Source: a virus
Lineage: Duplodnaviria > Caudoviricetes
Reading direction: 5' to 3' (one strand)
Length of the DNA: 59,711 bases
Virus record (IMG/VR): IMGVR_UViG_3300008448_000085
Span: 1-59,711 of that record
Position 1 is the first letter of the stretch, and each line of letters opens with the position of its first letter. This document shows positions 9,839 through 55,686 of the stretch, piece after piece. A program made the translations under genes and the position numbers. Under the pieces are notes generated by a model. That model was not told the origin of the DNA, did not search any database, and saw nothing but the letters and a program-made list of their open reading frames with translations.

Positions 9839-10040
9839 TAGCCCAACGCAGTACGTGGTGATCTTGCAGACACCGCAGTACGGAACGATTACCTGGGGTC
9901 CATTCCGGGACCGCCAAGCAGCCCAAGACTGGATCGCCAACGGCGGGCACAAGAACGAGATGTGGGCTGCGTACGAAACCGACAGGCCATCGGGCATGGT
10001 GTTGTTTGCGAACCCACTTTACATTCCGGAGGATGTGTGA
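9825..10040 (+). CDS. Hypothetical early protein
   Basis: GGAGG RBS. Confidence 0.65.
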   Translation: MAKVDSPTQYVVILQTPQYGTITWGPFRDRQAAQDWIANGGHKNEMWAAYETDRPSGMVLFANPLYIPEDV

Positions 10041-10372
10041 TGGCTAAGAAGAAGGAAGACGGCGATGACGGTGTTGTGATCTCAGGATTTGGCATCCTGA
10101 CGATCAGCGTAAAGCTGGAACTGCATGTCGATGAGGATGCGCTCGGTGTCCCCACCGTGCTGCAACACAAAGTACAGACGGTGATTCCTGATCCCGGGGT
10201 TGGCAAGTCGCACAATCCAGATCGCTTCATGTCGGCCGGCGAGGTGTTCGGCGCCGATCTCGGTCGCGTTGCCAACCATTTCCGAGAGGCCTTGGCTAAC
10301 CATGAGGATATGGGCAAGGGCTTCGCCCGAGAGATGCAGGACTGGGACAAGGATCATGGGAGGACTAAGTGA
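10040..10372 (+). CDS. Hypothetical early protein
   Basis: TGATG coupling; MAKKK start. Confidence 0.65.
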   Translation: MAKKKEDGDDGVVISGFGILTISVKLELHVDEDALGVPTVLQHKVQTVIPDPGVGKSHNPDRFMSAGEVFGADLGRVANHFREALANHEDMGKGFAREMQDWDKDHGRTK

Positions 10373-10620
10373 TGGCTAAGCCATATCGCGTGGCGATGAC
10401 AGAAGACGAGTTTGCTGACCGCTATGCGGAGCTGTGCCACTACATCGAAGCCATGTGGGCCAATCGAAAGGCTAAGGACTACTGGAACGTGCAGGAGAAA
10501 GACATCCCGCCCGTCGTATCCAAGCAGTCCAGGGAAGTGGCGATGCATATCGCCATGGAGATTCTTGGCATTGATTATGTTCGCCCGGCAAAGACCTCTC
10601 GCAAAACGAAAGGACCGTAA
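10372..10620 (+). CDS. Hypothetical early protein
   Basis: TGATG coupling. Confidence 0.65.
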   Translation: MAKPYRVAMTEDEFADRYAELCHYIEAMWANRKAKDYWNVQEKDIPPVVSKQSREVAMHIAMEILGIDYVRPAKTSRKTKGP

Positions 10621-10886
10621 TGGCCAGTCCTCGCAGGAAGATCAGCAAAGAGGAACGCAAGGGGCGTGATGCCCTGATGCGCGTGGTCAACTGGGTCCAC
10701 ATCCTGGTGATCAAGCGACTGTTTGACGAGGGGTGGACCACTGCCGAGGTGGCGGAGGTGTACGACAGGCTGCAGCGTGAGGCTGGCAGGATTGCGGTGG
10801 AGCATGCCATGCCTGACTGGCACTACGTGGACGAGAAGCAAGTGGCGGAGTTGGTGTACCAATCCATAACGAAGGAGGATCGATGA
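10620..10886 (+). CDS. Hypothetical early protein
   Basis: TAATG coupling. Confidence 0.65.
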   Translation: MASPRRKISKEERKGRDALMRVVNWVHILVIKRLFDEGWTTAEVAEVYDRLQREAGRIAVEHAMPDWHYVDEKQVAELVYQSITKEDR

Positions 10887-11260
10887 AGCTGGATACTGAC
10901 CTTGATATTGTGCAGTGGATTTTTGATTCCGAGTTTATGATGAACACTTTCTCTGGGCCTATCGACGCCCAAGAAATGTGTGGCCTGATGCGTGAGCTAC
11001 ACGCCATCACCAAGAAGTCGCCCGGCGATCCCGAGGAGGTTCGCGAGGCGTGGTCGGCACTTGCTAAGTGCGTCGGGCCGCGGTTCATCGGGCAGTTCTT
11101 GGCCTGCGGTACGTGGCGTGAGCTGTGTCCAGCCCCGGATGACACGGCTGTCGATGCTGATGACGTTGCTACCGTGTGGTTCCAAGACGGCAAGCGTGTT
11201 GTTGCCCGCGTTGTGTACGACGGCAAGAAGCCGGTCGGCGTGGAGTTCGGTATCCAGTAG
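10883..11260 (+). CDS. Hypothetical early protein
   Basis: ATGA overlap, GGAGG RBS. Confidence 0.7.
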   Translation: MKLDTDLDIVQWIFDSEFMMNTFSGPIDAQEMCGLMRELHAITKKSPGDPEEVREAWSALAKCVGPRFIGQFLACGTWRELCPAPDDTAVDADDVATVWFQDGKRVVARVVYDGKKPVGVEFGIQ

Positions 11261-11269
11261 GAGGCAATC

Positions 11270-11338
11270 ATGGACAAGGATGTCCTGGTGGAGCTGGTGA
11301 TTGTGGTGATCCGTGTCATCTTGGAGAACATTCGATGA
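11270..11338 (+). CDS. 22-aa hydrophobic peptide MDKDVLVELVIVVIRVILENIR
   Basis: AGGAGG RBS; ATGA-coupled to next peptide. Confidence 0.55.
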   Translation: MDKDVLVELVIVVIRVILENIR

Positions 11339-11412
11339 GTCCAGTGGCCGATTTCCTGTGCGGCTGTGCCATAATGGGGTTCGTATTCTTCTGGTCTTCC
11401 ATGAGGCAGTGA
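11335..11412 (+). CDS. 25-aa hydrophobic peptide MSPVADFLCGCAIMGFVFFWSSMRQ
   Basis: GGAG RBS; TGATG-coupled to recombinase. Confidence 0.5.
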   Translation: MSPVADFLCGCAIMGFVFFWSSMRQ

Positions 11413-12155
11413 TGCTTTACCTGTACGCCCGAGTGTCCACCGACAAGCAAGAGAACGGCCGCGATGCCCAAGTCTCCAGGCTCCAGCAATGGGCCGCAGA
11501 CAAGGGACTCGCGGTCGATGGCGTTTACGTGGACGAGGATGTGTCGGCCTTCAGCACCGCACTGTCCGACCGCAAGGAGGGCAAGCGGCTGTGGGATATC
11601 CTCAAGCAGGGCGACACGGTGGTGATGACGAAGATCGACCGCGGCTTCCGGCGATGGGCCGATGCCGCAGTCACGCATGCCAAGTGGAAAGACCTGGGGG
11701 TATCGCTCCGGTTCTCGGACATGGACTTCGATCTGTCCACGCCACAGGGAGAACTGTTCTTCTCCCAGCTGGTGGCGTTCAGCCAGTACGAATCCCGCAT
11801 GCACGGCCAACGCAAGCGGGAGGTCTATGCCCACAAACGGCAGACCGGCCAGCCCTACAACCAGCTGCGCCCGTACGGGTGGCTGGCAGTGAAGGGTGCG
11901 GCCGGCCGGCTGGAGTCCTGGGCGCCGTGCATCCCCGAGCAGGAGCTTGGACGCAGGGTGCTGCGGATGCGGTCGCAGGGAATGAGCTACCCTAAGATCG
12001 CCTTGGACCTTTGCCGCGAGAACGTGAAGAAGCCGGTGACGAAGAAGGGTTCATCGGGCTACTACCATGTGTCCGATGTGTTCCTTCTGGCGCGTGCGGC
12101 GCAAGCCGGATATCCAAAGCAGCGGCGAGATTCCGTGCCAGCTCGCGTGATCTGA
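11412..12155 (+). CDS. Serine recombinase (resolvase/invertase family)
   Basis: YARVSTDKQ catalytic Ser motif; GDTVVMTKIDRGFR; TPQGELFF. Confidence 0.92.
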   Translation: MLYLYARVSTDKQENGRDAQVSRLQQWAADKGLAVDGVYVDEDVSAFSTALSDRKEGKRLWDILKQGDTVVMTKIDRGFRRWADAAVTHAKWKDLGVSLRFSDMDFDLSTPQGELFFSQLVAFSQYESRMHGQRKREVYAHKRQTGQPYNQLRPYGWLAVKGAAGRLESWAPCIPEQELGRRVLRMRSQGMSYPKIALDLCRENVKKPVTKKGSSGYYHVSDVFLLARAAQAGYPKQRRDSVPARVI

Positions 12156-13013: not shown

Positions 13014-13255
13014 TTGGCGATCCAGTTGCTGACCAGTGAGATCAATACAGGCAAGACGAACATCACAAAGAACGAGCCGCACTCCGGGTGCATACGGAGG
13101 TATGTCTCCTTCATGCGCCGGCGGTAGGACCGCATGCTGATCGCACCGTCAGGCACAACCAGCAGGCCGACGAGGGCCACCTCTTTGGAGTGCTTGCTGA
13201 TTCCTCTGGCGCCTGACTCGTACAGGCAGAGGTCTGCTACTTCAGAGGCTTGCAG
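12881..13255 (-). CDS. Membrane protein (start codon uncertain)
   Basis: TM segment FFVMFVLPVLISLVSNWIAKWI. Confidence 0.55.
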   Translation of the reverse strand: MQASEVADLCLYESGARGISKHSKEVALVGLLVVPDGAISMRSYRRRMKETYLRMHPECGSFFVMFVLPVLISLVSNWIAKWITNRKDMRAIRSQAFDALTESSPSLMDRLTSISTSPNEPKSV

Positions 13256-13488
13256 TCTTTGCACTCCGGTACGAGGACAGACTTCACCTTGCACTTGCAC
13301 CCTGGCGGGCAGGGGCAGTCGGTCACATGGCCGTCCCCGTGGACGATCTTGCCGCCCTTGCACAGGCCGCAGCATTTCTCCGGGACAGGAGATGCTTGGG
13401 TGTGCAGGGTATACGCTGCGCTGACCGCGACCGTGGCGGTGCAGTCCGGTGCGGCCAGACCCAAGAGGATGAGGAGCTTACTCACCAT
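13237..13488 (-). CDS. Small exported Cys-rich protein
   Basis: Hydrophobic N-terminus; CCGLCKG...DCPCPPGCKC. Confidence 0.65.
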   Translation of the reverse strand: MVSKLLILLGLAAPDCTATVAVSAAYTLHTQASPVPEKCCGLCKGGKIVHGDGHVTDCPCPPGCKCKVKSVLVPECKDCKPLK

Positions 13489-14431
13489 GATGAAGCATCC
13501 CGATGGTGCCGAAGTCCGGAAGACGCTGCGGCGGGAACCCGTCCACTGAGCCGTAGGTCCAGCAGTCGCCGTTGTCCACGCAGACGTTGAAGTCTTCTGC
13601 GGAGGTGACGATCATGCCTGGAGGGCAGGGCGGGTAGTCCTTGGGCCAGTCCTTGATCGGCTGGTTCCATGGACCCCAGCTGTTCTGAATGAACCACACC
13701 GTGAACGGCCAGTACTCCAGCGTACTATCGTAGCCGGCAATCGCCATGTCATGGTTCCACCCCCCCGGCGTGCGGGTATGGATGTTCTTGCTGTTGGGCG
13801 ACGCTGCCCAAGATGCGTACTGCCCCGAGTGGGCGGCGTAGCCATTGAACATGGCGTCCATCAGGTCATCTTGCGTGCGCACGTTGGTGATCACGCCGAC
13901 CTTGTTCTTGCGGCAGAGTTCCTTGACGTTCTCAGGCACGCCAGAAGATCCCCATCGCGAGCCGATGGAAGAGTTGTACTTTGACAGGTCAACGACGCCT
14001 TCGTAGTTGGTTCGTACGAGGAACCCAACGTCTCGCTCAAACTGAGACGCACGGGCCGGGGCCATGCCTTCGCCGCCGTGACCTCGCGCCCCATAGGTAG
14101 GCTCGGTCGCCCCCATGGAGAACCAATCTTCTGGTTCTTTCTTGACGAGAATCTCGGTCGCCCTGGTCATGTCCCGGGCGTTGCGACTTCCGTGACTTAC
14201 GCAGTCTCCCGTCGTTTGCTTTTCAGTGAAGCATCGCTTGTCCAGCTTGGTTGCGTACTGCCAGAGCAGCGCCCGCTTGCCCTTGCCGGAACCTTTGATG
14301 TTCGGCTCATCGAAGTACTGGTACTTCTGGCTCTCAAGGAACTCCATCTTCGCACGCATGTCGAAGATGTAACCCTTCATCCCGTCTTCGTAAGCGCGGA
14401 ACAGGGAGTACGGTGTGTCTAACTCACTCAC
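13478..14431 (-). CDS. Papain-like cysteine protease (C1 family)
   Basis: Q-TTGD-C-VSHG (oxyanion Gln, catalytic Cys), N-H-DMAIAGY, IQ-N-SWG-PW. Confidence 0.88.
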   Translation of the reverse strand: MSELDTPYSLFRAYEDGMKGYIFDMRAKMEFLESQKYQYFDEPNIKGSGKGKRALLWQYATKLDKRCFTEKQTTGDCVSHGSRNARDMTRATEILVKKEPEDWFSMGATEPTYGARGHGGEGMAPARASQFERDVGFLVRTNYEGVVDLSKYNSSIGSRWGSSGVPENVKELCRKNKVGVITNVRTQDDLMDAMFNGYAAHSGQYASWAASPNSKNIHTRTPGGWNHDMAIAGYDSTLEYWPFTVWFIQNSWGPWNQPIKDWPKDYPPCPPGMIVTSAEDFNVCVDNGDCWTYGSVDGFPPQRLPDFGTIGMLHHGE

Positions 14432-18048: not shown

Positions 18049-18425
18049 GATCCGACGTTGCGCTCTCGTTCCTTGAGGTAGAAGTCAGGCAGTGGGGCCG
18101 GCTCGTAACCGAGATGCTTCTTGTGCTTGAGGTAAGCCAGGAACTCAGGGCCATAGTTATCCGGGTCACACTCCTGCTTGAGGCCTAATAGTATACGCTT
18201 GTTCAGTTCCGGAAAGCAACCGACAATCTTGCCACTGTGGTAGATGCCGTGACAGCGGTCGCAGAGTCTCAAGTAATTCCGCACATCATGCTTGCGACCC
18301 GCGCCGCCGATGATGTGATGGACCTCCAAGCTGCGCCGGCCATCTGACTCAGGCCAGTGGCACACAGCACAACAGCGATGCTCGGCCACCCATTCCAGAA
18401 GGGCGGCACGTTCAGCCTTGTTCAT
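18027..18425 (-). CDS. HNH endonuclease
   Basis: CAVC...LEVHHI...NYLRLCDRCH. Confidence 0.85.
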   Translation of the reverse strand: MNKAERAALLEWVAEHRCCAVCHWPESDGRRSLEVHHIIGGAGRKHDVRNYLRLCDRCHGIYHSGKIVGCFPELNKRILLGLKQECDPDNYGPEFLAYLKHKKHLGYEPAPLPDFYLKERERNVGSWTSRTP

Positions 18426-18855
18426 TCTGTCTCTCCAGATCGCGAGACAGGTATTGGATGGCGCGCGACAGCCTGGACATGCACTCCCCATGCTCACCAG
18501 ACATGGCGATGTTGCAGAGGTGGCAGACAACGCCACGCACATGGCCAAGGTTGTGGCAGTGATCTATCCGAAGATCGGAACCGACTAGCGGTTTGCCGCA
18601 GCACTGGCAGTTGGGAACCTGCCAGAAAGCAAAGACCTCATCAACCGAAACCTTGTAATTGAGCGCTACCTTCTTGGCCCGATACAGAATCGGATCGGCC
18701 TTGCGCTTGCGACACTGCGACTCGCGAACCTTCCGGCACACGCATTCCTTGCAGTGCCAGTTCAATCCATCCGGGGTTTTGGCCCGCTTGCCAAACGCGC
18801 TGATCGGCTTGTCCTCGCCGCAGCTGGGGCACCTTTTCCGTGCTTCAGATATCAC
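18412..18855 (-). CDS. Endonuclease VII-like nuclease with N-terminal Zn finger
   Basis: CPSC...CKEC; CQCC...IDHCH..GHVRGVVCHLCN. Confidence 0.85.
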   Translation of the reverse strand: MISEARKRCPSCGEDKPISAFGKRAKTPDGLNWHCKECVCRKVRESQCRKRKADPILYRAKKVALNYKVSVDEVFAFWQVPNCQCCGKPLVGSDLRIDHCHNLGHVRGVVCHLCNIAMSGEHGECMSRLSRAIQYLSRDLERQNEQG

Positions 18856-18929: not shown

Positions 18930-19240
18930 GCGAAGAGGCGCAGTGACTCCCAGCGAAAACGCCGGAAGTCAATCGCTTAGACCGCGATTTCGGCGGCAGC
19001 GACAGGATGCTGATTGTTTAACGCCGTTGTATCCTTCTCTCCCAGACACGGCGCTTGCGGTTGGCTGTGGCCCGGGGAGGGCGGAGTCACCAGTTCCCAT
19101 CCCCTCAGTCGCAAGAGTTCGGATGGATTGCCTTCCGGCGGGTCACATCCGTGTTGCCCCCTCTTGTTACATCCCATGCGGGACAGGTTGGCGGGGAGCC
19201 GATCTGCAGGCCATGTGCCCTTCCGCGGGCTATGTCGGTC
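18930..19240 (-). ncRNA. Putative ~310-nt structured non-coding RNA
   Basis: Own promoter, no credible ORF, many stems, GNRA loop, long-range 8-bp pairing. Confidence 0.6.
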
Positions 19241-19243
19241 CAA

Positions 19244-19271
19244 ATAATAACAGACTGTCTTCCTGAGTCAA
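19244..19271 (-). promoter_or_regulatory. Promoter TTGACT-N16-TATTAT
   Basis: Points into the 18930-19240 non-coding gap. Confidence 0.65.
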
Positions 19272-19960
19272 ATCGTCGCCAAGCCCTCTGGCGTGGCCCC
19301 AGAAGGCTGCATGCCTCCAGGCGGTACAGCCACCCCAGAAATAGTGGACGCCCGTCCAGCGTCACCTGCGGGCCTGTAATAGTATCTCTCGTCTTGGCTG
19401 ACATCCCACTCGCAGGACTCAGCCTGATAAATGTCCTTCTGCACCCGGTATCCGCACGCCACAGGATCGGGTGTGGCACCGCAGAAGTAGCCGTCCTTCC
19501 ATGCTATGCGATTGGTCGGCAGGGCCGCGAGGTTGCCGTCCTCCAAGGCCATGACATGGGCGCACTTGTTCTGTTCCGGCGTCAGTGTAAAGCCAGGGCG
19601 CTCTGACGAGTTGGGCAACCAATCGACTGTAAACAGGTAGCTGCCGGGGGCTTTGCCGGATCGCAGGTAGCAGTCTGCCTGATGATCTCTTAGGTACGAA
19701 AACACCGTCACAACCGGACGGTCGCTGAAGCAGTCCCAAAGCTGAACATCCCCCAGCGGTCGGCCGGCATGGCCGGTCAACGTCAGGGCATGGATTGGAA
19801 CCCCGCGGTAGTGCGCCCCTGATTTCAGCATGACATGAAAGCCCAGCGCCCTCCCGGTAATGGATTGTATGGCGAAGGCATAGGCCTCTTCATGTCCGGA
19901 GTTCTTGCTGATGAACTCTCGCCTGACGAAACAGCTCAGATACGGGATGTCAGCGTTCAT
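19268..19960 (-). CDS. Conserved hypothetical phage protein (NADIP...PIHAL...QLWDCFS...YLFTVDW)
   Basis: Motifs recurrent in aquatic phages. Confidence 0.75.
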   Translation of the reverse strand: MNADIPYLSCFVRREFISKNSGHEEAYAFAIQSITGRALGFHVMLKSGAHYRGVPIHALTLTGHAGRPLGDVQLWDCFSDRPVVTVFSYLRDHQADCYLRSGKAPGSYLFTVDWLPNSSERPGFTLTPEQNKCAHVMALEDGNLAALPTNRIAWKDGYFCGATPDPVACGYRVQKDIYQAESCEWDVSQDERYYYRPAGDAGRASTISGVAVPPGGMQPSGATPEGLATI

Positions 19961-20180
19961 CAATCTTCCACGCCTCTTCGCAGTCGAACACATTCGGCGC
20001 CCGCTCCCCGGCCTGTGACATGTCCACCACCCCCGGGTAGTGACGCATGAGCCGGCGAGCCTCATCGCGTACGTGGCGGGGGATTTTCTTGTATCCATCC
20101 GGCAGGCTGGGGTGCATCAGCCGCAGGAGAAAGCCCCTGGTGCTAAGGACTGATCGGGTTCGCTGGCTGGGAAGAGTCAT
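19950..20180 (-). CDS. BPSL0761-like small protein
   Basis: MTLPSQRTRSV...FLLRL...VRDEARRLMRHYP. Confidence 0.7.
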   Translation of the reverse strand: MTLPSQRTRSVLSTRGFLLRLMHPSLPDGYKKIPRHVRDEARRLMRHYPGVVDMSQAGERAPNVFDCEEAWKIDER

Positions 20181-20243
20181 GTGGTCACCAGAACGTATTA
20201 GAAAACGTGCGGTTTGCGTTGCTTTTCAATCATGACTGGGGTG

Positions 20244-20279
20244 TTACGCAGCAGCGTGCTGCATAATTGCTGGTTCTCA
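20244..20279 (+). mobile_element. Degenerate att half-site (left cassette boundary)
   Basis: Hairpin TTACGCAGCA/TGCTGCATAA + 6 bp + GTTCTCA (20273-20279), complementary to TGAGAAC at 20557. Confidence 0.5.
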
Positions 20280-20543
20280 GTCCCGATACTTCGCCTTGAG
20301 CGCCTTTAGCACCTTGCCTGCCGTTGTGTGTCCAGCCGCCGTCATCTCCAATCCGCCCAATAGAAAACCAGTCTGCTCGGCATACTTGCCCATCATTGTG
20401 ACCGCTTGATGCGCCGCTTCGCTCTGCCGCTTCAGCAACGCCCGAAGGGCTACGATCTCGTCGCGGGCATCATGGAGCGTCTCGCCGGCGTCTTCCGCTT
20501 CCCCGTCCTCCAGCCATCGGCTGATGCGTGTCACAACGTCCAT
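20277..20543 (-). CDS. Hypothetical protein inside putative cassette
   Basis: MDVVTRI...DARDEIVALR; stop codon lies in the GTTCTCA box. Confidence 0.7.
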   Translation of the reverse strand: MDVVTRISRWLEDGEAEDAGETLHDARDEIVALRALLKRQSEAAHQAVTMMGKYAEQTGFLLGGLEMTAAGHTTAGKVLKALKAKYRD

Positions 20544-20556
20544 GTCACTTTTCCCA

Positions 20557-20605
20557 TGAGAACCACGCGATGCAGCGGACGAGCCGCTGATCGCTGGCGT
20601 TCTCA
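20557..20605 (+). mobile_element. Integron attC-like recombination site (49 bp)
   Basis: R'' TGAGAAC-5 bp-L'' GATGCAGC (extra base)-9 nt-L' GCTGATC-6 bp-R' GTTCTCA. Confidence 0.7.
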
Positions 20606-20935
20606 TCCCCGCGTCCGCTCCAGCAAGGAGCGAAGTACGCCCGCTCTGTCTGACCACAGGCCGGCAAACGATTGCCGTCCATCGCATGCCGTGTTCAGCT
20701 CCTCCTCAACCTTGCATGCGGCAACAGCCATCTTGATGGCTGCCCGCTCCGCGTCGGTGAGCGGACTTCCCTTCACGCTCCACTCTTCGACTTCAAACTC
20801 CATGAACCCGCGACGGGCGTTCTCTTCGGCGACGTGGGCGTTTGCCGCCTCTTCGGTGGCGAAGATGTCAAACAGGTGCCACTCGTCTCCGTCCTCGCCG
20901 CTGCCGCCGTTGGTCACTAGCCATACGCTCGTCAT
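20603..20935 (-). CDS. Hypothetical protein (LTDAERAAI...LRSLLERT tail)
   Basis: Stop codon inside attC R'; shares C-terminal module with next gene. Confidence 0.7.
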   Translation of the reverse strand: MTSVWLVTNGGSGEDGDEWHLFDIFATEEAANAHVAEENARRGFMEFEVEEWSVKGSPLTDAERAAIKMAVAACKVEEELNTACDGRQSFAGLWSDRAGVLRSLLERTRG

Positions 20936-21300
20936 TTGGTTCTCTCCAGCAGTCTTCGCAGCGTGTCAGCGTACAGCCCGTCGCGCCCGTACCCGGCATA
21001 CCACTCTATGGCCTCACGCTCCTTAGCAGTGAGCGTCAAGTTTTCTTGCAAGGAATCTTGACAGTCCATCTGGATGATCACATCGCCATTGACCACTGAC
21101 AGCGTGGCGTCTTGGTCTGCGATGCGGCGGATCGCCTCCTTGAGGCTCGCGATCTCACGGCAGGCCCCGGCGCTGGAGTGGGCGTAGGTTTCGCACACCG
21201 TCACCAATCGCTCAATCTCATCGGCCGCTTCGTCGCAGAGCTTGTCTATAGCCTTGAACGAATACGCCCTATCCCGCAGGGAGTCCGTGAGTTTAGTCAT
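20932..21300 (-). CDS. Hypothetical protein (EAADEIERL; LTAKEREAI...LRRLLERT)
   Basis: ATGA coupling; recurrent phage motifs. Confidence 0.7.
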   Translation of the reverse strand: MTKLTDSLRDRAYSFKAIDKLCDEAADEIERLVTVCETYAHSSAGACREIASLKEAIRRIADQDATLSVVNGDVIIQMDCQDSLQENLTLTAKEREAIEWYAGYGRDGLYADTLRRLLERTK

Positions 21301-21378
21301 GGGTCATCATCAACAGGGAGGAAATCCAGATCAGTACTATTAGGAACAGGTCGGTCGGCATGGCGTCGATGTATTCCA

Positions 21379-21516
21379 TCACTCCCCCCAGACGTTAATG
21401 ACCTTGGCCTGGAGGCGTGTTACCTCGGCCTCCAATATCAGGATGCGTGCGCGCAACATAGCGTTCTCGCTCTTCAGTCTCTCCACCTCCTGAGAGGAAT
21501 AGTCCTGCGTCTCCAT
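21379..21516 (-). CDS. Small coiled-coil protein
   Basis: METQDYSSQEVERLKSENAMLRARI... Confidence 0.45.
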   Translation of the reverse strand: METQDYSSQEVERLKSENAMLRARILILEAEVTRLQAKVINVWGE

Positions 21517-24195: not shown

Positions 24196-24534
24196 TCAAC
24201 GGAAGTCGGACGCGAACTCTTCCTCCACAGCCTCGCGGCGCTTGCCACCGCAGAGCTGCACCTTCATCGCCCGGACGATCTTGCGGCTCTTCCGCTCACC
24301 GTCCTTCTCCCAGGACTGCGTCTGAATCTCCCCCTCCACCAGCACCTGAGTGCCGCGGGTGAGGTACTCCATCACGCCGCCCGGCTTCCACATCTCGCAG
24401 TCGAAGTACTCCACGGAGTCCTTGTAGCCATTGACGGCCACAGAGAACTTCGCCACCTCCGACTCGCCGGCCATCCGAGACTCGGCGTCCTTGGTCAGAT
24501 TGCCAAGGCAAATGAACCGCTGATACCCACTCAT
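24196..24534 (-). CDS. ssb: Single-stranded DNA-binding protein
   Basis: LGNLTKDAE...YLTRGTQVLVEGEI; acidic C-tail. Confidence 0.92.
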   Translation of the reverse strand: MSGYQRFICLGNLTKDAESRMAGESEVAKFSVAVNGYKDSVEYFDCEMWKPGGVMEYLTRGTQVLVEGEIQTQSWEKDGERKSRKIVRAMKVQLCGGKRREAVEEEFASDFR

Positions 24535-25223
24535 GCTTGGACCTCCGTTTCCCATACCTTCTTGAACTCGGCCTCAACCCGGTGGAACACTTCCACAGGG
24601 ACAGCCTTTTCCTTCGCACGCAGACGCACCATGTCTAGGTGCTTCTTCGCTTGATCCTTGTTGTCTGCCTCGTTGATGGCGTTGATGGCGCCTTGGAGGT
24701 AGACCATGTGCTTCGGTTCAGTCTTGACCTCTGGCTTCTTGCCGGTGGCCGACTGCTCGGCGCCCCTGCCTGACGCACGGTTGCCGTCATCGTCCTCCTC
24801 GCCAACCCAGGCGCCGACGAGGTCCAGCAACGCATATCGCTTGGCGTAGGTCTTCGCAGAGCCAAGGCCCTGCATGTCCGGTGGCTGCGTCCCGTTCTTT
24901 GTTTCTCGCGGCAGGTTGATGAGCGGCACCAGGGTGGATGTCCACTCCCCAGAGCCGTGCTTCAAAACCCCAAGGCAACACCATCCCATCTCGGGGCCAT
25001 ACCAGCCGGTGTGATACGTGGGCATCGCGAAGCCCTCTTCGGTCAGCAAGCCAACAAGCTCGTTGCAGATGGTCGCCAAGTCCGCATACTTGCTGCGGAA
25101 GTGAGGGTTGTCCTTCTTCTTGGCAATCGTTTCCATCTTCTTGTGAACATTGATCAGCGCAGCGGTGTGCTGCTTCAGCTCTGGACTAGACGACGGGCCA
25201 ACGCCCTCATGTGAATACTTCAT
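24531..25223 (-). CDS. erf: ERF-family ssDNA annealing protein
   Basis: KDNPHFRSKYADL; QGLGSAKTYAKRYAL. Confidence 0.9.
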   Translation of the reverse strand: MKYSHEGVGPSSSPELKQHTAALINVHKKMETIAKKKDNPHFRSKYADLATICNELVGLLTEEGFAMPTYHTGWYGPEMGWCCLGVLKHGSGEWTSTLVPLINLPRETKNGTQPPDMQGLGSAKTYAKRYALLDLVGAWVGEEDDDGNRASGRGAEQSATGKKPEVKTEPKHMVYLQGAINAINEADNKDQAKKHLDMVRLRAKEKAVPVEVFHRVEAEFKKVWETEVQA

Positions 25224-26080
25224 ACTTCCACGTACTCCTCTTCCTTCTGTGCCCACGCCGGGACAACGAGTTCCTTGATCTCGTTCGCGTCAGCCGGCAG
25301 ATACATGCCGGTGGAGCGGCGTAGACGAACTTCCTCCATTACGTTCCGCATCCGCCGGCCAGCAGCTTCAACGAGGGCCTCGGGCAGATGAAAGACCTTG
25401 GTCCTGTACGGCGGCGTCGTTGCGACAAAGACGAACGGCATGCGGAAGTGATCCATGCCGATGGCCTTGGCCGACTCCACGTACAGCCATTCCTGCTCGT
25501 AGTAGCCGTAGTCCTTCGCGCTGAAGAACAGCTTGTCCCACGGTTGGCTTGTGGTCTTGAGGTCCCACCACAGGTCGGCACAGCAGGCGTCGGGACGGGT
25601 CTTCAGTGCATGGCCGTCGATTTCAAAGAACACAGAGACTTGCGTCTCAACCGTCCGCTCCATCAGTGATCGGCAGGCCTCGTTCTGCTGCATGCCGTCC
25701 AGCATGTAGGCGTAGACCTGGGCCTGATCCTCAGTGGTGATGACGGTGCCATCCCGCTGATGCTCGGCAGCCCACTCCTTGTACGCCTTGGTGGAGCGAG
25801 AACCGTTGGCCCCCAGCACATCGTCAGGCGGGGTTACCACAACGTCCTTGAACAGCCTGCCGCCAAGAATCTCGGTGATGATGGTGTCGAATTCCGACCC
25901 CTTGCTGGTGGCAGAGTTACCGCCCCAGAACACCCGGCCAGAGTCAAGCCACTGCTGAACCTCGCCGCCGTACTTGGCGACCGTGTGGAGGAACGACCGC
26001 GAGTCGAACTCAGTTTCCATCCGGTACGCCTGATTGCTCATGCCGATCACCTTGGTCGGCAACTCCGTGATAGTGGTCAT
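25220..26080 (-). CDS. RecE/exonuclease VIII-like PD-(D/E)XK exonuclease
   Basis: QVSVFF...KTRPD...WDLKTT...YYEQ..Y; adjacent to erf. Confidence 0.85.
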   Translation of the reverse strand: MTTITELPTKVIGMSNQAYRMETEFDSRSFLHTVAKYGGEVQQWLDSGRVFWGGNSATSKGSEFDTIITEILGGRLFKDVVVTPPDDVLGANGSRSTKAYKEWAAEHQRDGTVITTEDQAQVYAYMLDGMQQNEACRSLMERTVETQVSVFFEIDGHALKTRPDACCADLWWDLKTTSQPWDKLFFSAKDYGYYEQEWLYVESAKAIGMDHFRMPFVFVATTPPYRTKVFHLPEALVEAAGRRMRNVMEEVRLRRSTGMYLPADANEIKELVVPAWAQKEEEYVEV

Positions 26081-26431: not shown

Positions 26432-27247
26432 ATGCGACTGATCGACTTCGCCCTTGACTACGCGATAAAGATTGGGGCCAGCCCCGGCTACACCGAGCAG
26501 CTCCGCGTCCTGACCAAACGGCTGCCATGGGAAACGACCGACCTCACGGTCAATCGCATCGACGGCTACCTCACACAGGCTCTCCATAGCCTCGCTCCCC
26601 AGACAGTCCAGAACCACCGCCGAATGCTCAACACGCTTCGCAGAGCGGCCCTCCGACGCGGCTTGGTGGTGGACGATTGTACAGACCCGCTGCGGCGTGT
26701 CAAGTGCAACCATCCCCTCCCCAGAGCCTGGACACATGCCGAGATACGCCGGCTCATAGAAGTCGCCAAGGAAATGCCGCGTGGCACGGCCCACTGCCCG
26801 TGGAAGATTCTCCTCCCGGCGTGGATTCTGGTGTCCTACAGCAGCGGGCTGCGGCTCGGAGATATGCTGGCGCTGACGCATGAGTCCATCCGTGGAAACA
26901 AGCTGGCGATTGTGATGGCCAAGACCCGCCGTCCGCATGTTGTCATGCTGGACGAAGCGGCCCTCCTCGCCATCGGCTCCCTCCCTCGCAGAGGCCCCCG
27001 CATCTTCGGGGACTTGGTCGGAAGGTGCGTGTTTATACGCGCGTTCCGACGATTGGTCAAACGGGCCGGGCTGTACGGCAGTGGCAAATACCTGCGTAGA
27101 AGCAGTGCCACCTATGCGGTAATCGCCGGCCAAGACCCCACTGGACACTTAGGACACGCCACGGCCGGGCTGGCCCAGAAACATTATGTAGACCCGGTCT
27201 TGGTCGCAGATGCCAAGCAGCCGGTGCCGAGCCTATCGAACCCCTAG
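26432..27247 (+). CDS. int: Tyrosine recombinase / phage integrase
   Basis: SGLRLGD (R), KT (K), KYLRRS (HxxR variant), LGH, HY (Tyr); GAGGAGG RBS. Confidence 0.88.
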   Translation: MRLIDFALDYAIKIGASPGYTEQLRVLTKRLPWETTDLTVNRIDGYLTQALHSLAPQTVQNHRRMLNTLRRAALRRGLVVDDCTDPLRRVKCNHPLPRAWTHAEIRRLIEVAKEMPRGTAHCPWKILLPAWILVSYSSGLRLGDMLALTHESIRGNKLAIVMAKTRRPHVVMLDEAALLAIGSLPRRGPRIFGDLVGRCVFIRAFRRLVKRAGLYGSGKYLRRSSATYAVIAGQDPTGHLGHATAGLAQKHYVDPVLVADAKQPVPSLSNP

Positions 27248-55091: not shown

Positions 55092-55107
55092 CTACATATC
55101 AATGTTC
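55092..55107 (-). promoter_or_regulatory. Putative late promoter motif
   Basis: GAACATT-GATAT-GTAG overlapping EndoVII stop. Confidence 0.55.
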
Positions 55108-55686
55108 AATATGCGTCGTTCTTGTTACGGGGTACGCCTGCTCGCGGTAATCAACGTCCAGTGTTCTGACCAGATAGTCAGCGGCAGCACGCAGCACATC
55201 CGGCCTCTCTAGGCTGATCCCCACCAAGGAATTGCACTTACTGCACAGAACGCCGCGAACCGCACCATCCGAATGCCGATGGTCGATGTGCTGGTGTCGG
55301 CTGTCGGAGAACCGCTGACCGCAGCACTCGCACGCTTCATTGGCCGTCATCTGCGCGGCCGTTTCTCTTGGAAGTCCGTACCGGCGAGAGCGGCTGTGGA
55401 CGCTGTCACACACTCTGCAAAACCGACCAAGCCCGTCGTTTGCGGCGCGGTATACGGCAAACTCAGCGGACGGCTTAATGATGCCGCAGGACGCGCAATG
55501 CTTAGATTTGGGAACGTGCGAGGCCCCCTGGCGAGCCTGCTTTTGTTTTCTTAGCGATTGGCTGCGGGCGTACGCGCAGGGCTTGCATGTGTTAGCTCTG
55601 CCGTCCGCGTTCCGCGAGTTGTGAAACTCTTCAAGCCGCTTGACTTCCCCGCACGCCCGACACGCCTTCGCAGCCGCGATAATCAC
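55099..55686 (-). CDS. Endonuclease VII-like homing endonuclease with two Zn fingers
   Basis: CRAC..CKPC, CASC..CRVC; IDHRHSDGAVRGVLCSKCN. Confidence 0.88.
   Translation of the reverse strand: MIIAAAKACRACGEVKRLEEFHNSRNADGRANTCKPCAYARSQSLRKQKQARQGASHVPKSKHCASCGIIKPSAEFAVYRAANDGLGRFCRVCDSVHSRSRRYGLPRETAAQMTANEACECCGQRFSDSRHQHIDHRHSDGAVRGVLCSKCNSLVGISLERPDVLRAAADYLVRTLDVDYREQAYPVTRTTHIEH

Follow-up and report, generated by a model that had tools for sequence, protein, structure and literature searches.

A hairpin of attC type in a complete phage genome and its likely place in a reversed-polarity family of integron recombination sites

In this study, we analysed a short hairpin and the small genes beside it in a virus record that is complete at 59,711 bp and has direct repeats at its termini (IMG/VR record IMGVR_UViG_3300008448_000085). 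The whole of this stretch of DNA is referred to here as the window, and the hairpin lies at 20557-20605. Terminase, portal, helicase and endonuclease VII genes were detected in the phage genome; the terminase has relatives at 27% identity only, and a blastn search (distant mode) with 19200-21400 against annotated phages gave no match. Judged by its sequence, this is a phage without a close cultured relative. The minus strand carries every gene around the hairpin: a gene of 110 aa ends within it, an open reading frame (ORF) of 88 aa, for which no Pfam or PHROG family was matched, follows it, and a gene of 76 aa lies further downstream (Table 1). An earlier interpretation, made from the letters and their ORFs and called here the sequence-only reading, had proposed that an integron-type attC site and an apparent gene cassette are present at this place.

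The heptamer TGAGAAC is found on the plus strand at 20557-20563 and its complement GTTCTCA at 20599-20605 and again at 20273-20279; the last of these had been put forward as the complement of the R'' box at the start of an integrated cassette, and the sequence is indeed as described. It had also been noticed that two TGA stop codons lie within the boxes, and this is the case for both the 110-aa gene (20605-20603) and the next gene (20279-20277). The motif has 8 matches window-wide against 6.65 expected, hence it is not enriched, and three of the eight fall within 333 bp. The segment 20557-20605 forms an imperfect hairpin bounded by TGAGAAC and GTTCTCA. When folded as single-stranded DNA, its 49 nt reach -17.0 kcal/mol on the minus strand (z -4.39) and -17.1 kcal/mol on the plus strand (z -4.26), and none of 200 shuffled sequences equalled either value. 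Read along the minus strand, the layout is a 7-nt box, a 4-nt spacer, stems of 5 bp and 6 bp, a 5-nt loop that ends in T (20579), then the 6 bp, a bulged C (20572; G on the plus strand), the 5 bp, a 3-nt spacer and the second 7-nt box. The arm opposite AAC has its two unpaired bases at positions 16 and 23, 6 bp apart, and the window copy is intact, with all 18 stem pairs as well as C16 and T23 present. The attC geometry had been claimed for the plus strand, and that description is of the same structure seen from the other strand.

This layout can be compared with that of known attC sites. According to the cited parts of Nivina 2016 (PMC5027507), the bottom strand of an attC site carries 5'-RYYYAAC in the R' box and GTTRRRY in its partner box, next to unpaired spacers of 5-6 nt; of its extrahelical bases, which lie opposite AAC, the one at position 16 is in most cases a G, and a 6-bp stem separates it from a conserved T at 23 or 24; the terminal structure is variable, down to 3 nt, and the length is 57-141 bp. 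The bottom strands of attC-aadA7 and of TJE1_attC1, a validated phage attC of about 50 nt (PMC9892861), are laid out in the supplement to that paper as 7 (R') + 5 + 3 + 6, a loop or stem ending in T, and 6 + G + 3 + 5 + 7. The minus strand of the window reads 7 + 4 + 5 + 6, a loop ending in T, and 6 + C + 5 + 3 + 7, and the AAC and GTT triplets are present at the foot of the hairpin. With the position numbering fixed by eye against these two bottom strands, positions 16 and 23 and the 6-bp spacing of the window site match both of them, and box and bulge are, in total, as far apart as in attC-aadA7, two of the positions that are spacer in attC being paired in the window site.

The hairpin belongs to an abundant family. 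A right-arm pattern search of viral contigs returned at least 127 stretches; among the matches listed there are 126 unique copies, about half of which (63) also have a matching left box. A scan on boxes and fixed-register pairing only gave bimodal scores and 128 unique copies, 72 of them beyond the right-arm pattern by which copies had been ascertained. Ten loci with relatives of the protein enclosed in the window have these arms too, enclosing loops of 5 to about 46 nt, and in the family overall the loops range from 5 to about 53 nt. In a set of 112 unique arm pairs, selected in a way that treats G-T and A-C alike, 1060 cells are Watson-Crick pairs, 19 are G-T, 5 are A-C and 36 are other combinations; the C on the 3' arm is bulged in all 112, and a T stands just 5' of the 6-bp stem in 106. 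Covariation was measured on an alignment of 56 long copies, in which 87.4% of the cells are paired against 72.1% after shuffling, changes on both sides occur in 187 cells against 67.5, and the covariation score is 0.377 against 0.116, values that none of 500 shuffles reached; with the partners slid out of register the score is at most 0.085. Both-side changes were seen at 12 of the 15 inner pairs. The four pairs beyond the T, which had not been used in copy selection, covary strongly (e.g. GC17/CG13/AU11/UA10), and in the long copies the T is therefore a true extrahelical base between two stems. G4, A5, A6 and C7 and their partners are invariant in 56/56 copies, GAAC/GTTC having been a search criterion.

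A covariance model built from the 56-copy alignment, named R1 here and covering this site family only, gave one significant match in the 59,711 bp of the window, at 20557-20605, with 57.1 bits on the minus strand (E 9.7e-14) and 15.5 bits on the plus strand; that the minus strand is the one that folds is also indicated by the excess of G-T over A-C cells in the 112 arm pairs. In five related virus records it called 9, 2, 2, 16 and 4 sites, co-oriented and clustered, the 16 sites of one record (G004) lying within 5.2 kb; no IntI-type integrase was found in these five records. The hairpin also stands out in metagenome data. Contig depth, summed over 20532-20605, is about 190-2200 in three of the four runs, as opposed to about 5-15 beside it, which is about 15 to 300 times the depth of the flanks, and the hairpin is therefore a high-copy repeat in those communities.

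The same sites are found in bacterial integrons. When one genome per species was scanned with the pattern, 14 stretches came out, seven of them with a full site, and R1 called 3-25 sites in each of the five assemblies concerned. One of these assemblies contains a 15.8-kb contig (G010:C39) whose record title names Cyanobium sp. and which carries ABC-transporter, PsbP, RecR and lipoyl-synthase genes together with an integrase of 457 bits against a TIGR02249 cut-off of 265. Four R1 sites (13070-14200) lie there on the minus strand, 2-3 kb past the 3' end of the integrase gene. The same array contains a MazEF pair with an attC of canonical appearance (CTCTAAC ... GTTAGAG) behind it; this attC shares the strand of the R1 sites and folds with the same 3'-arm pattern of bulge, 6 bp and bulge. 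The array also contains a hybrid site, in which the left box CTCTAAC is joined to a phage-type core, and a crossover within AAC would yield exactly such a product. Another contig (G102:C17) has two sites 4-5 kb from intI in the same relative layout; in both arrays the sites stand 3' of intI, which we take to be the 'inverted integrase' layout. On a third contig (G007:C45), a further integrase above the TIGR02249 cut-off has a site 1.2 kb upstream of it. Across the bacterial family to which G010 belongs, sites occur in 19 of 121 genomes (E<=1e-6), some of them on megabase contigs, and in all five of the site-bearing genomes tested from these 19 an intI above cut-off was present.

Cassettes are shared between bacteria and viruses. 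The array of G010:C39 (stretch L182, integrase gene at 9903-10991) agrees with viral loci at 92% over 359 nt (spanning a 128-aa ORF with 90% protein identity), 88% over 196 nt and 93% over 149 nt, and its short site at 13784-13833 is 96% identical to the window hairpin over 50 nt. R1 gave no match to the canonical-looking attC sites of L182, which are about 105 nt long; between 14129 and 15700 they accompany a duplicated MazE/MazF-like cassette adjoining the phage-type cassettes. The window resembles sedentary chromosomal integrons (G010:C39, G102:C17) in the site family, in strand polarity relative to canonical-looking attC and in its homologous cassettes, and differs from them in being a complete phage genome with terminal repeats and with terminase and portal genes. 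When the window terminase was used as a query against the five bacterial assemblies, matches were found in G009 only and none in G010 or G007. In G009, to which the stretches L145 and L151 belong, four terminase matches were counted along with 21 sites; the best two of these matches are 61-69% identical to the window terminase, and this metagenome bin therefore includes related phage contigs. The phage is probably linked to picocyanobacteria, as the shared sites and cassettes and the freshwater origin of the runs holding the stretch suggest.

The limits of the exchanged unit were examined by flank comparison. The unit at 20274-20599 and its counterparts in four viral loci (L002, L004, L006 and L007) are 76-88% identical over the gene and 80-95% over the head, whereas over the 100 nt outside the unit the identity is 56-71% against a random level of 60 +/- 3, with the exception of L002 and L004, which are close relatives and agree at 91% upstream. 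In five genomes the breaks fall directly after GAAC at both unit ends, and the cassette would therefore correspond to 20274-20599, the very limits that had been proposed before and that also follow from the AA|C rule. A wider analysis of exchange points used 130 copies and the pairs among them that share a flank. In pairs with the same upstream flank (n=25) the site core is shared in one case only, and the identity of the left arm is 0.52 against a background of 0.57; similarity therefore ends directly after AAC. In pairs with the same downstream flank (n=23) the core is shared in 8, and the identity of the right arm is 0.80 against 0.655. Reassortment at the boxes is thus observed, and the site seems to travel mainly with the gene downstream of it, which fits an AA|C crossover on the sense strand. 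In addition, the 5 nt outside the boxes are complementary across the gene unit (3.13/5, n=63) but not across the site (1.69/5, n=131; random 1.84). This is expected if the ends of an excised cassette themselves form an R box, and it is unexpected for an RNA hairpin that stays in place. Metagenome contigs from the four runs break or join at 20277-79, 20557-61, 20580-83 and 20603-05, and none of these joints is readable as a precise deletion.

From these data, we consider it likely that the hairpin at 20557-20605 belongs to a sequence family of its own among the attC-type sites of integrons and that 20274-20599 is a cassette of reversed polarity. The attC reading proposed earlier gains support from the bottom-strand geometry, from the covariation of the stem and from the arrays that stand beside integrases above cut-off with canonical-looking attC on the same strand. 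The family is best supported as a reversed-polarity, non-consensus variant of integron recombination sites, represented here by a single site and one cassette in a complete phage genome. The site would act as a folded single strand, the minus (mRNA sense) strand being the equivalent of the attC bottom strand: it would present an R' box with AAC at its end, then a short spacer without pairing and an L stem closed by a 5-nt loop, with T23 and C16 on the arm opposite AAC and an R'' box that begins with GTT. If attC, as described in the cited part of PMC5027507, is taken as the analogue, the cut made by an integron integrase would fall within AAC, after its second A and before the C (20600|20599). 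The segment 20274-20599 would then be a self-contained cassette with its ORF on the bottom strand, an ORF that would begin just after its own hairpin, or inside it in long copies, and would have its stop codon at the next crossover point. We infer that a host picocyanobacterial IntI catalyses exchange in the phage DNA and that the window copy is still active. Since the site family also occurs beside true integrases in picocyanobacterial chromosomes, the phage probably trades small genes with bacterial integrons.

Table 1. Features at and around the hairpin and recombination-related loci of the phage (positions in the window)
Feature	Position	Strand	Evidence
attC-type imperfect hairpin	20557-20605	-	R1 57.1 bits; fold z -4.39; 96% over 50 nt to L182:13784-13833
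R'-like box TGAGAAC, with TGA stop of 110-aa gene (20605-20603)	20599-20605	-	Box sequence; flank comparisons
R''-like box GTTCTCA	20557-20563	-	Box sequence; R1 match
Extrahelical C, position 16 from the site's 3' end	20572	-	C in 112/112 arm pairs; bulged in folds
Conserved T, position 23, final loop base in window copy	20579	-	T in 106/112 arm pairs
Second TGAGAAC box, with stop of 88-aa ORF; predicted downstream cassette limit	20273-20279	-	Metagenome contigs diverge at 20277-20279
Inferred gene cassette, 326 bp: hairpin core, own ribosome-binding site and ATG, 88-aa ORF, stop, AGAA	20274-20599	-	Flank comparisons
Degenerate junction, AGAAC and GTTCT boxes 82 nt apart (long-site spacing), no hairpin	20189-20272	-	Fold; R1 scan
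122-aa gene	20932-21300	-	Paralogue of 110-aa gene; C-terminus LLERT(K/R)
110-aa gene, upstream of hairpin	20603-20935	-	Paralogue of 122-aa gene; C-terminus LLERT(K/R)
88-aa ORF, function unknown	20277-20543	-	109 aa if in-frame ATG 20606 is used
76-aa gene, downstream	19950-20180	-	Local gene list; relatives
Recombination toolkit loci	24196-26080	-	ERF, SSB and PDDEXK within this segment
Recombination toolkit locus	18412-18855	-	
Recombination toolkit locus	55099-55686	-	
Recombination toolkit locus	11313-12155	+	

Several observations weigh against this reading. In terms of sequence, the family boxes are (T/A)(G/C)AGAAC and GTTCT(C/G)(A/T) in place of the attC boxes RYYYAAC and GTTRRRY. The sequence-only reading had cautioned that only the AAC/GTT triplets fit the consensus, and this was well founded, as TGAGAAC misses 4/4 RYYY positions and GTTCTCA misses 4/4 RRRY positions; the commonest alternative boxes of the family, ACAGAAC and GTTCTGT, miss two positions per box. 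The first extrahelical base is C in the family and usually G in attC, and the spacer is 4 x 3 nt (5 x 4 where pair 12 is broken) as opposed to 5-6 nt. The earlier caution that 49 bp is short for attC holds with regard to the quoted range of 57-141, and it is weakened by the existence of a validated phage attC of about 50 nt, TJE1_attC1, in the cited part of Qi 2023. The enclosed gene had been said to run opposite to the usual cassette polarity, which is correct because the local genes are all on the minus strand: here the ORFs lie on the bottom-strand-like strand and the site is 5' of its own ORF, whereas canonical cassettes have their ORF on the top strand and attC 3' of it. Neither of the two genome searches of the phage, with TIGR02249 and with PF00589, placed an integron integrase in the window. 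The window holds one site and not two, because the junction at 20189-20272 neither folds (z -0.81) nor matches R1 at E<=10. By the rule quoted from IntegronFinder 2.0 (PMC9024848), a CALIN has at least two attC sites close together without an integrase, and with its one site the window is therefore not a CALIN; the related virus records, which hold 2-16 co-oriented R1-called sites and no IntI-type integrase, resemble one.

The exchange data also contain points of this kind. In 15 of the 23 pairs with a common downstream flank the copies differ right up to GTTCT, and the second box is therefore also a frequent junction, which a single crossover point would not predict. One viral copy (L038:1596-1684) is chimeric, with a left arm of CAGCGG type, a right arm of CCATTC type and a mispaired upper stem, and its unmatched arms mean that recombination inside sites occurs. 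It had been suggested to look for relatives lacking exactly 20274-20599, and none turned up: neither the 110-aa gene's relatives (L012-L017) nor those of the 76-aa gene (L168-L173) include a box-precise empty site, the constructed junction itself not having been searched. The closest relative, L168/L169, is without a larger block of about 20177-20930, comprising the 110-aa gene, the hairpin, the 88-aa gene and the junction, and the ends of this block share ATGAC and do not lie at the boxes; at 1440-1510 of L168/L169 an LLERTK-ending gene is joined directly to the 76-aa gene via an ATGA overlap. Finally, the copies used for the covariation measurements were partly ascertained by a fixed right-arm pattern and a pairing filter of ten pairs.

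Some of these points would equally suit a site that belongs to the attC family but is a fossil, having come with its gene through ordinary or short-homology recombination between phages by means of ERF, SSB and an exonuclease, with no integrase acting on it. There is only one site, the adjacent junction has decayed, the L168/L169 difference ends at ATGAC away from the boxes, the chimeric site of L038 exists and the searches with TIGR02249 and PF00589 found no IntI in the phage. The phage also has other means of exchange, namely SSB and ERF proteins, a nuclease of PDDEXK type, a small serine recombinase and a pair of endonuclease VII genes (Table 1), which together with its Xer-like tyrosine recombinase make routes besides IntI available. 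We nevertheless regard a fossil site as rather unlikely, as the window copy has retained all of its stem pairs and both extrahelical bases, is 96% identical to a copy in an integrase-linked array, and has cassette flanks that break exactly at GAAC in five genomes. It is still less probable that the enzyme acting on the sites is a small tyrosine recombinase of Xer type encoded by the phages themselves, and not a host IntI. Such an enzyme exists, a divergent protein of 271 aa encoded at 26432-27247 (+), with 26.0 bits against the PF00589 cut-off of 27.1; the genome-wide PF00589 search was negative and missed this weak recombinase, which hmmscan then found. Homologues are present in 5/5 related virus records searched (E 4e-15 to 6e-84). 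Its best NCBIfam matches are XerC, XerD and XerA, all weak (24-37 bits), there is no TIGR02249 match, and a PDB sequence search gave weak integrase matches only (E 0.03-0.1). The enzyme never adjoins the arrays, being 5.8 kb away in the window and >10 kb away in G004, and recombinases like it are common in phages for other purposes. At 271-322 aa these proteins are shorter than or about the size of Xer, and the extra domain with which IntI binds the extrahelical bases needs more length. The bacterial arrays of the same sites stand beside true IntI. All this makes a role of the phage enzyme at these sites highly improbable.

A different kind of explanation, which was our initial hypothesis, sees in the hairpin an mRNA coupling element or a linker for homologous recombination; it was demoted by the match at positions 16 and 23, by the head/tail test and by the linkage to integrases. 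In its present form it would hold that selection acts on the mRNA, with an intercistronic stem-loop that couples or gates translation or processing, and that shuffling follows incidentally from homologous recombination. The strand that folds is also the sense strand, the stop codon of the upstream gene abuts the stem, and long copies have a Shine-Dalgarno sequence and an ATG in the loop or upper stem with the ORF running through the 3' arm, all of which would be natural for such an element. A precedent would be the PeSL cassettes of T4-type phages, which in the cited parts of PMC2839356 and PMC4122927 are promoter-plus-terminator motifs that act via homologous recombination, and which the present modules resemble as repeated stem-loops bordering small, swappable early genes. 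The window hairpin differs from them in having no promoter or terminator signal, in its attC geometry and in the linkage of its family to integrases in bacteria: no promoter-like site was found in 19800-21500, and the sole terminator-like site there, at 21267-21281, is distant from the hairpin. As RNA in a context of 96 nt the window copy is unexceptional (z -0.40), and no Rfam family matches it or the related sites. An mRNA function would furthermore leave unexplained the bases at positions 16 and 23 with the 6-bp rule, the invariant AAC/GTT, the complementarity outside the boxes that is found within gene units and not within sites, and the co-location and shared polarity with intI and canonical-looking attC. 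Selection at the mRNA level is thus improbable as the explanation of the hairpin.

Returning to the attC-type reading, the position of the hairpin at the start of a gene deserves comment. The ATG at 20543 is preceded by GGGAAAAG, and a Shine-Dalgarno-like GGGAGAAG followed by an ATG/GTG-GAC-GTT start is retained in L002, L004, L006 and L007. In two of these loci (L002 and L007) the reading frame across the hairpin has shifted and is closed, and other short sites are followed by stops and then by a ribosome-binding site of their own. Because the Shine-Dalgarno sequence and the start are kept, the frame through the hairpin is broken and other short sites are alike, ATG 20543 is the likely start, giving a protein of 88 aa, and the hairpin of the window would be non-coding. 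A coupled start at the ATGA overlap (20606) may instead be used. Long sites are arranged differently. In L004 (1850-3400), L007 (2150-3400) and L009 (3200-3700) the loop itself carries AGGAG and an ATG, and a leader of about 20 codons (MSDDNT...SPASAGS-like) continues in frame through the 3' arm and GTTCT, beyond which the protein bodies are unrelated to one another. This leader also occurs as a separate mini-ORF, its TGA stop overlapping the next ATG, in L002 and L007.

These arrangements lead us to a broader proposal, which we put forward tentatively and with our doubts slightly the stronger, namely that freshwater phages and picocyanobacterial integrons share one pool of reverse-polarity cassettes in which the hairpin doubles as the translation start region, and that phages shuffle early genes through it routinely. 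The ribosome-binding site and start codon would sit in the variable loop, the protein would read out via the bulged arm and the GTT foot, the stop codon would be built into the next crossover point, and N-terminal leaders could be re-paired with different protein bodies. Integron recombination would then be routine for phages and not an occasional accident of capture.

That phages contain attC sites is already known. According to the cited parts of Qi 2023 (PMC9892861), attC clusters occur in phages and IntI1 recombines the short attC of virulent phages; such phages were rare in that survey, 21 attC-bearing phages being counted in 10,705 genomes with models trained on canonical attC. The phage attC sites described there resemble the window site in length, as far as TJE1_attC1 with its roughly 50 nt is concerned, in lying between small ORFs of unknown function in phages without an integrase and in their variable terminal loop. 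The present family, known here from its sequences, differs from those sites in that the ORFs are on the bottom strand and often begin within the loop. In the literature covered, to which bioRxiv supplements and subscription journals did not belong, we met with no account of this site family, nor of phage attC sites with a start codon in the loop. Because the R boxes are non-consensus and the gene polarity is reversed, standard screens may under-count the family. The near-identical sites and cassettes tie a complete phage genome to bacterial chromosomal integrons and offer a concrete, testable route for gene flow between phages and host integrons, as well as a natural case of a folded recombination site inside, or directly before, a coding sequence.

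Two minor observations concern the surroundings of the sites. Matches to the Rfam family DUF3800-VIII RNA were obtained in L038 at 2175-2240 and in L093 at 215-280, with 44.1 and 39.6 bits respectively (gathering score 40.2), and both lie near sites and not on them. Among the small genes that lie upstream of sites, many are paralogous and share the ending (L)LER(T/L)(K/G), as do the 122-aa and 110-aa genes of the window and genes in L004, L007 and L016, and the final codons of these paralogues already spell AGAAC or abut AGAAC.

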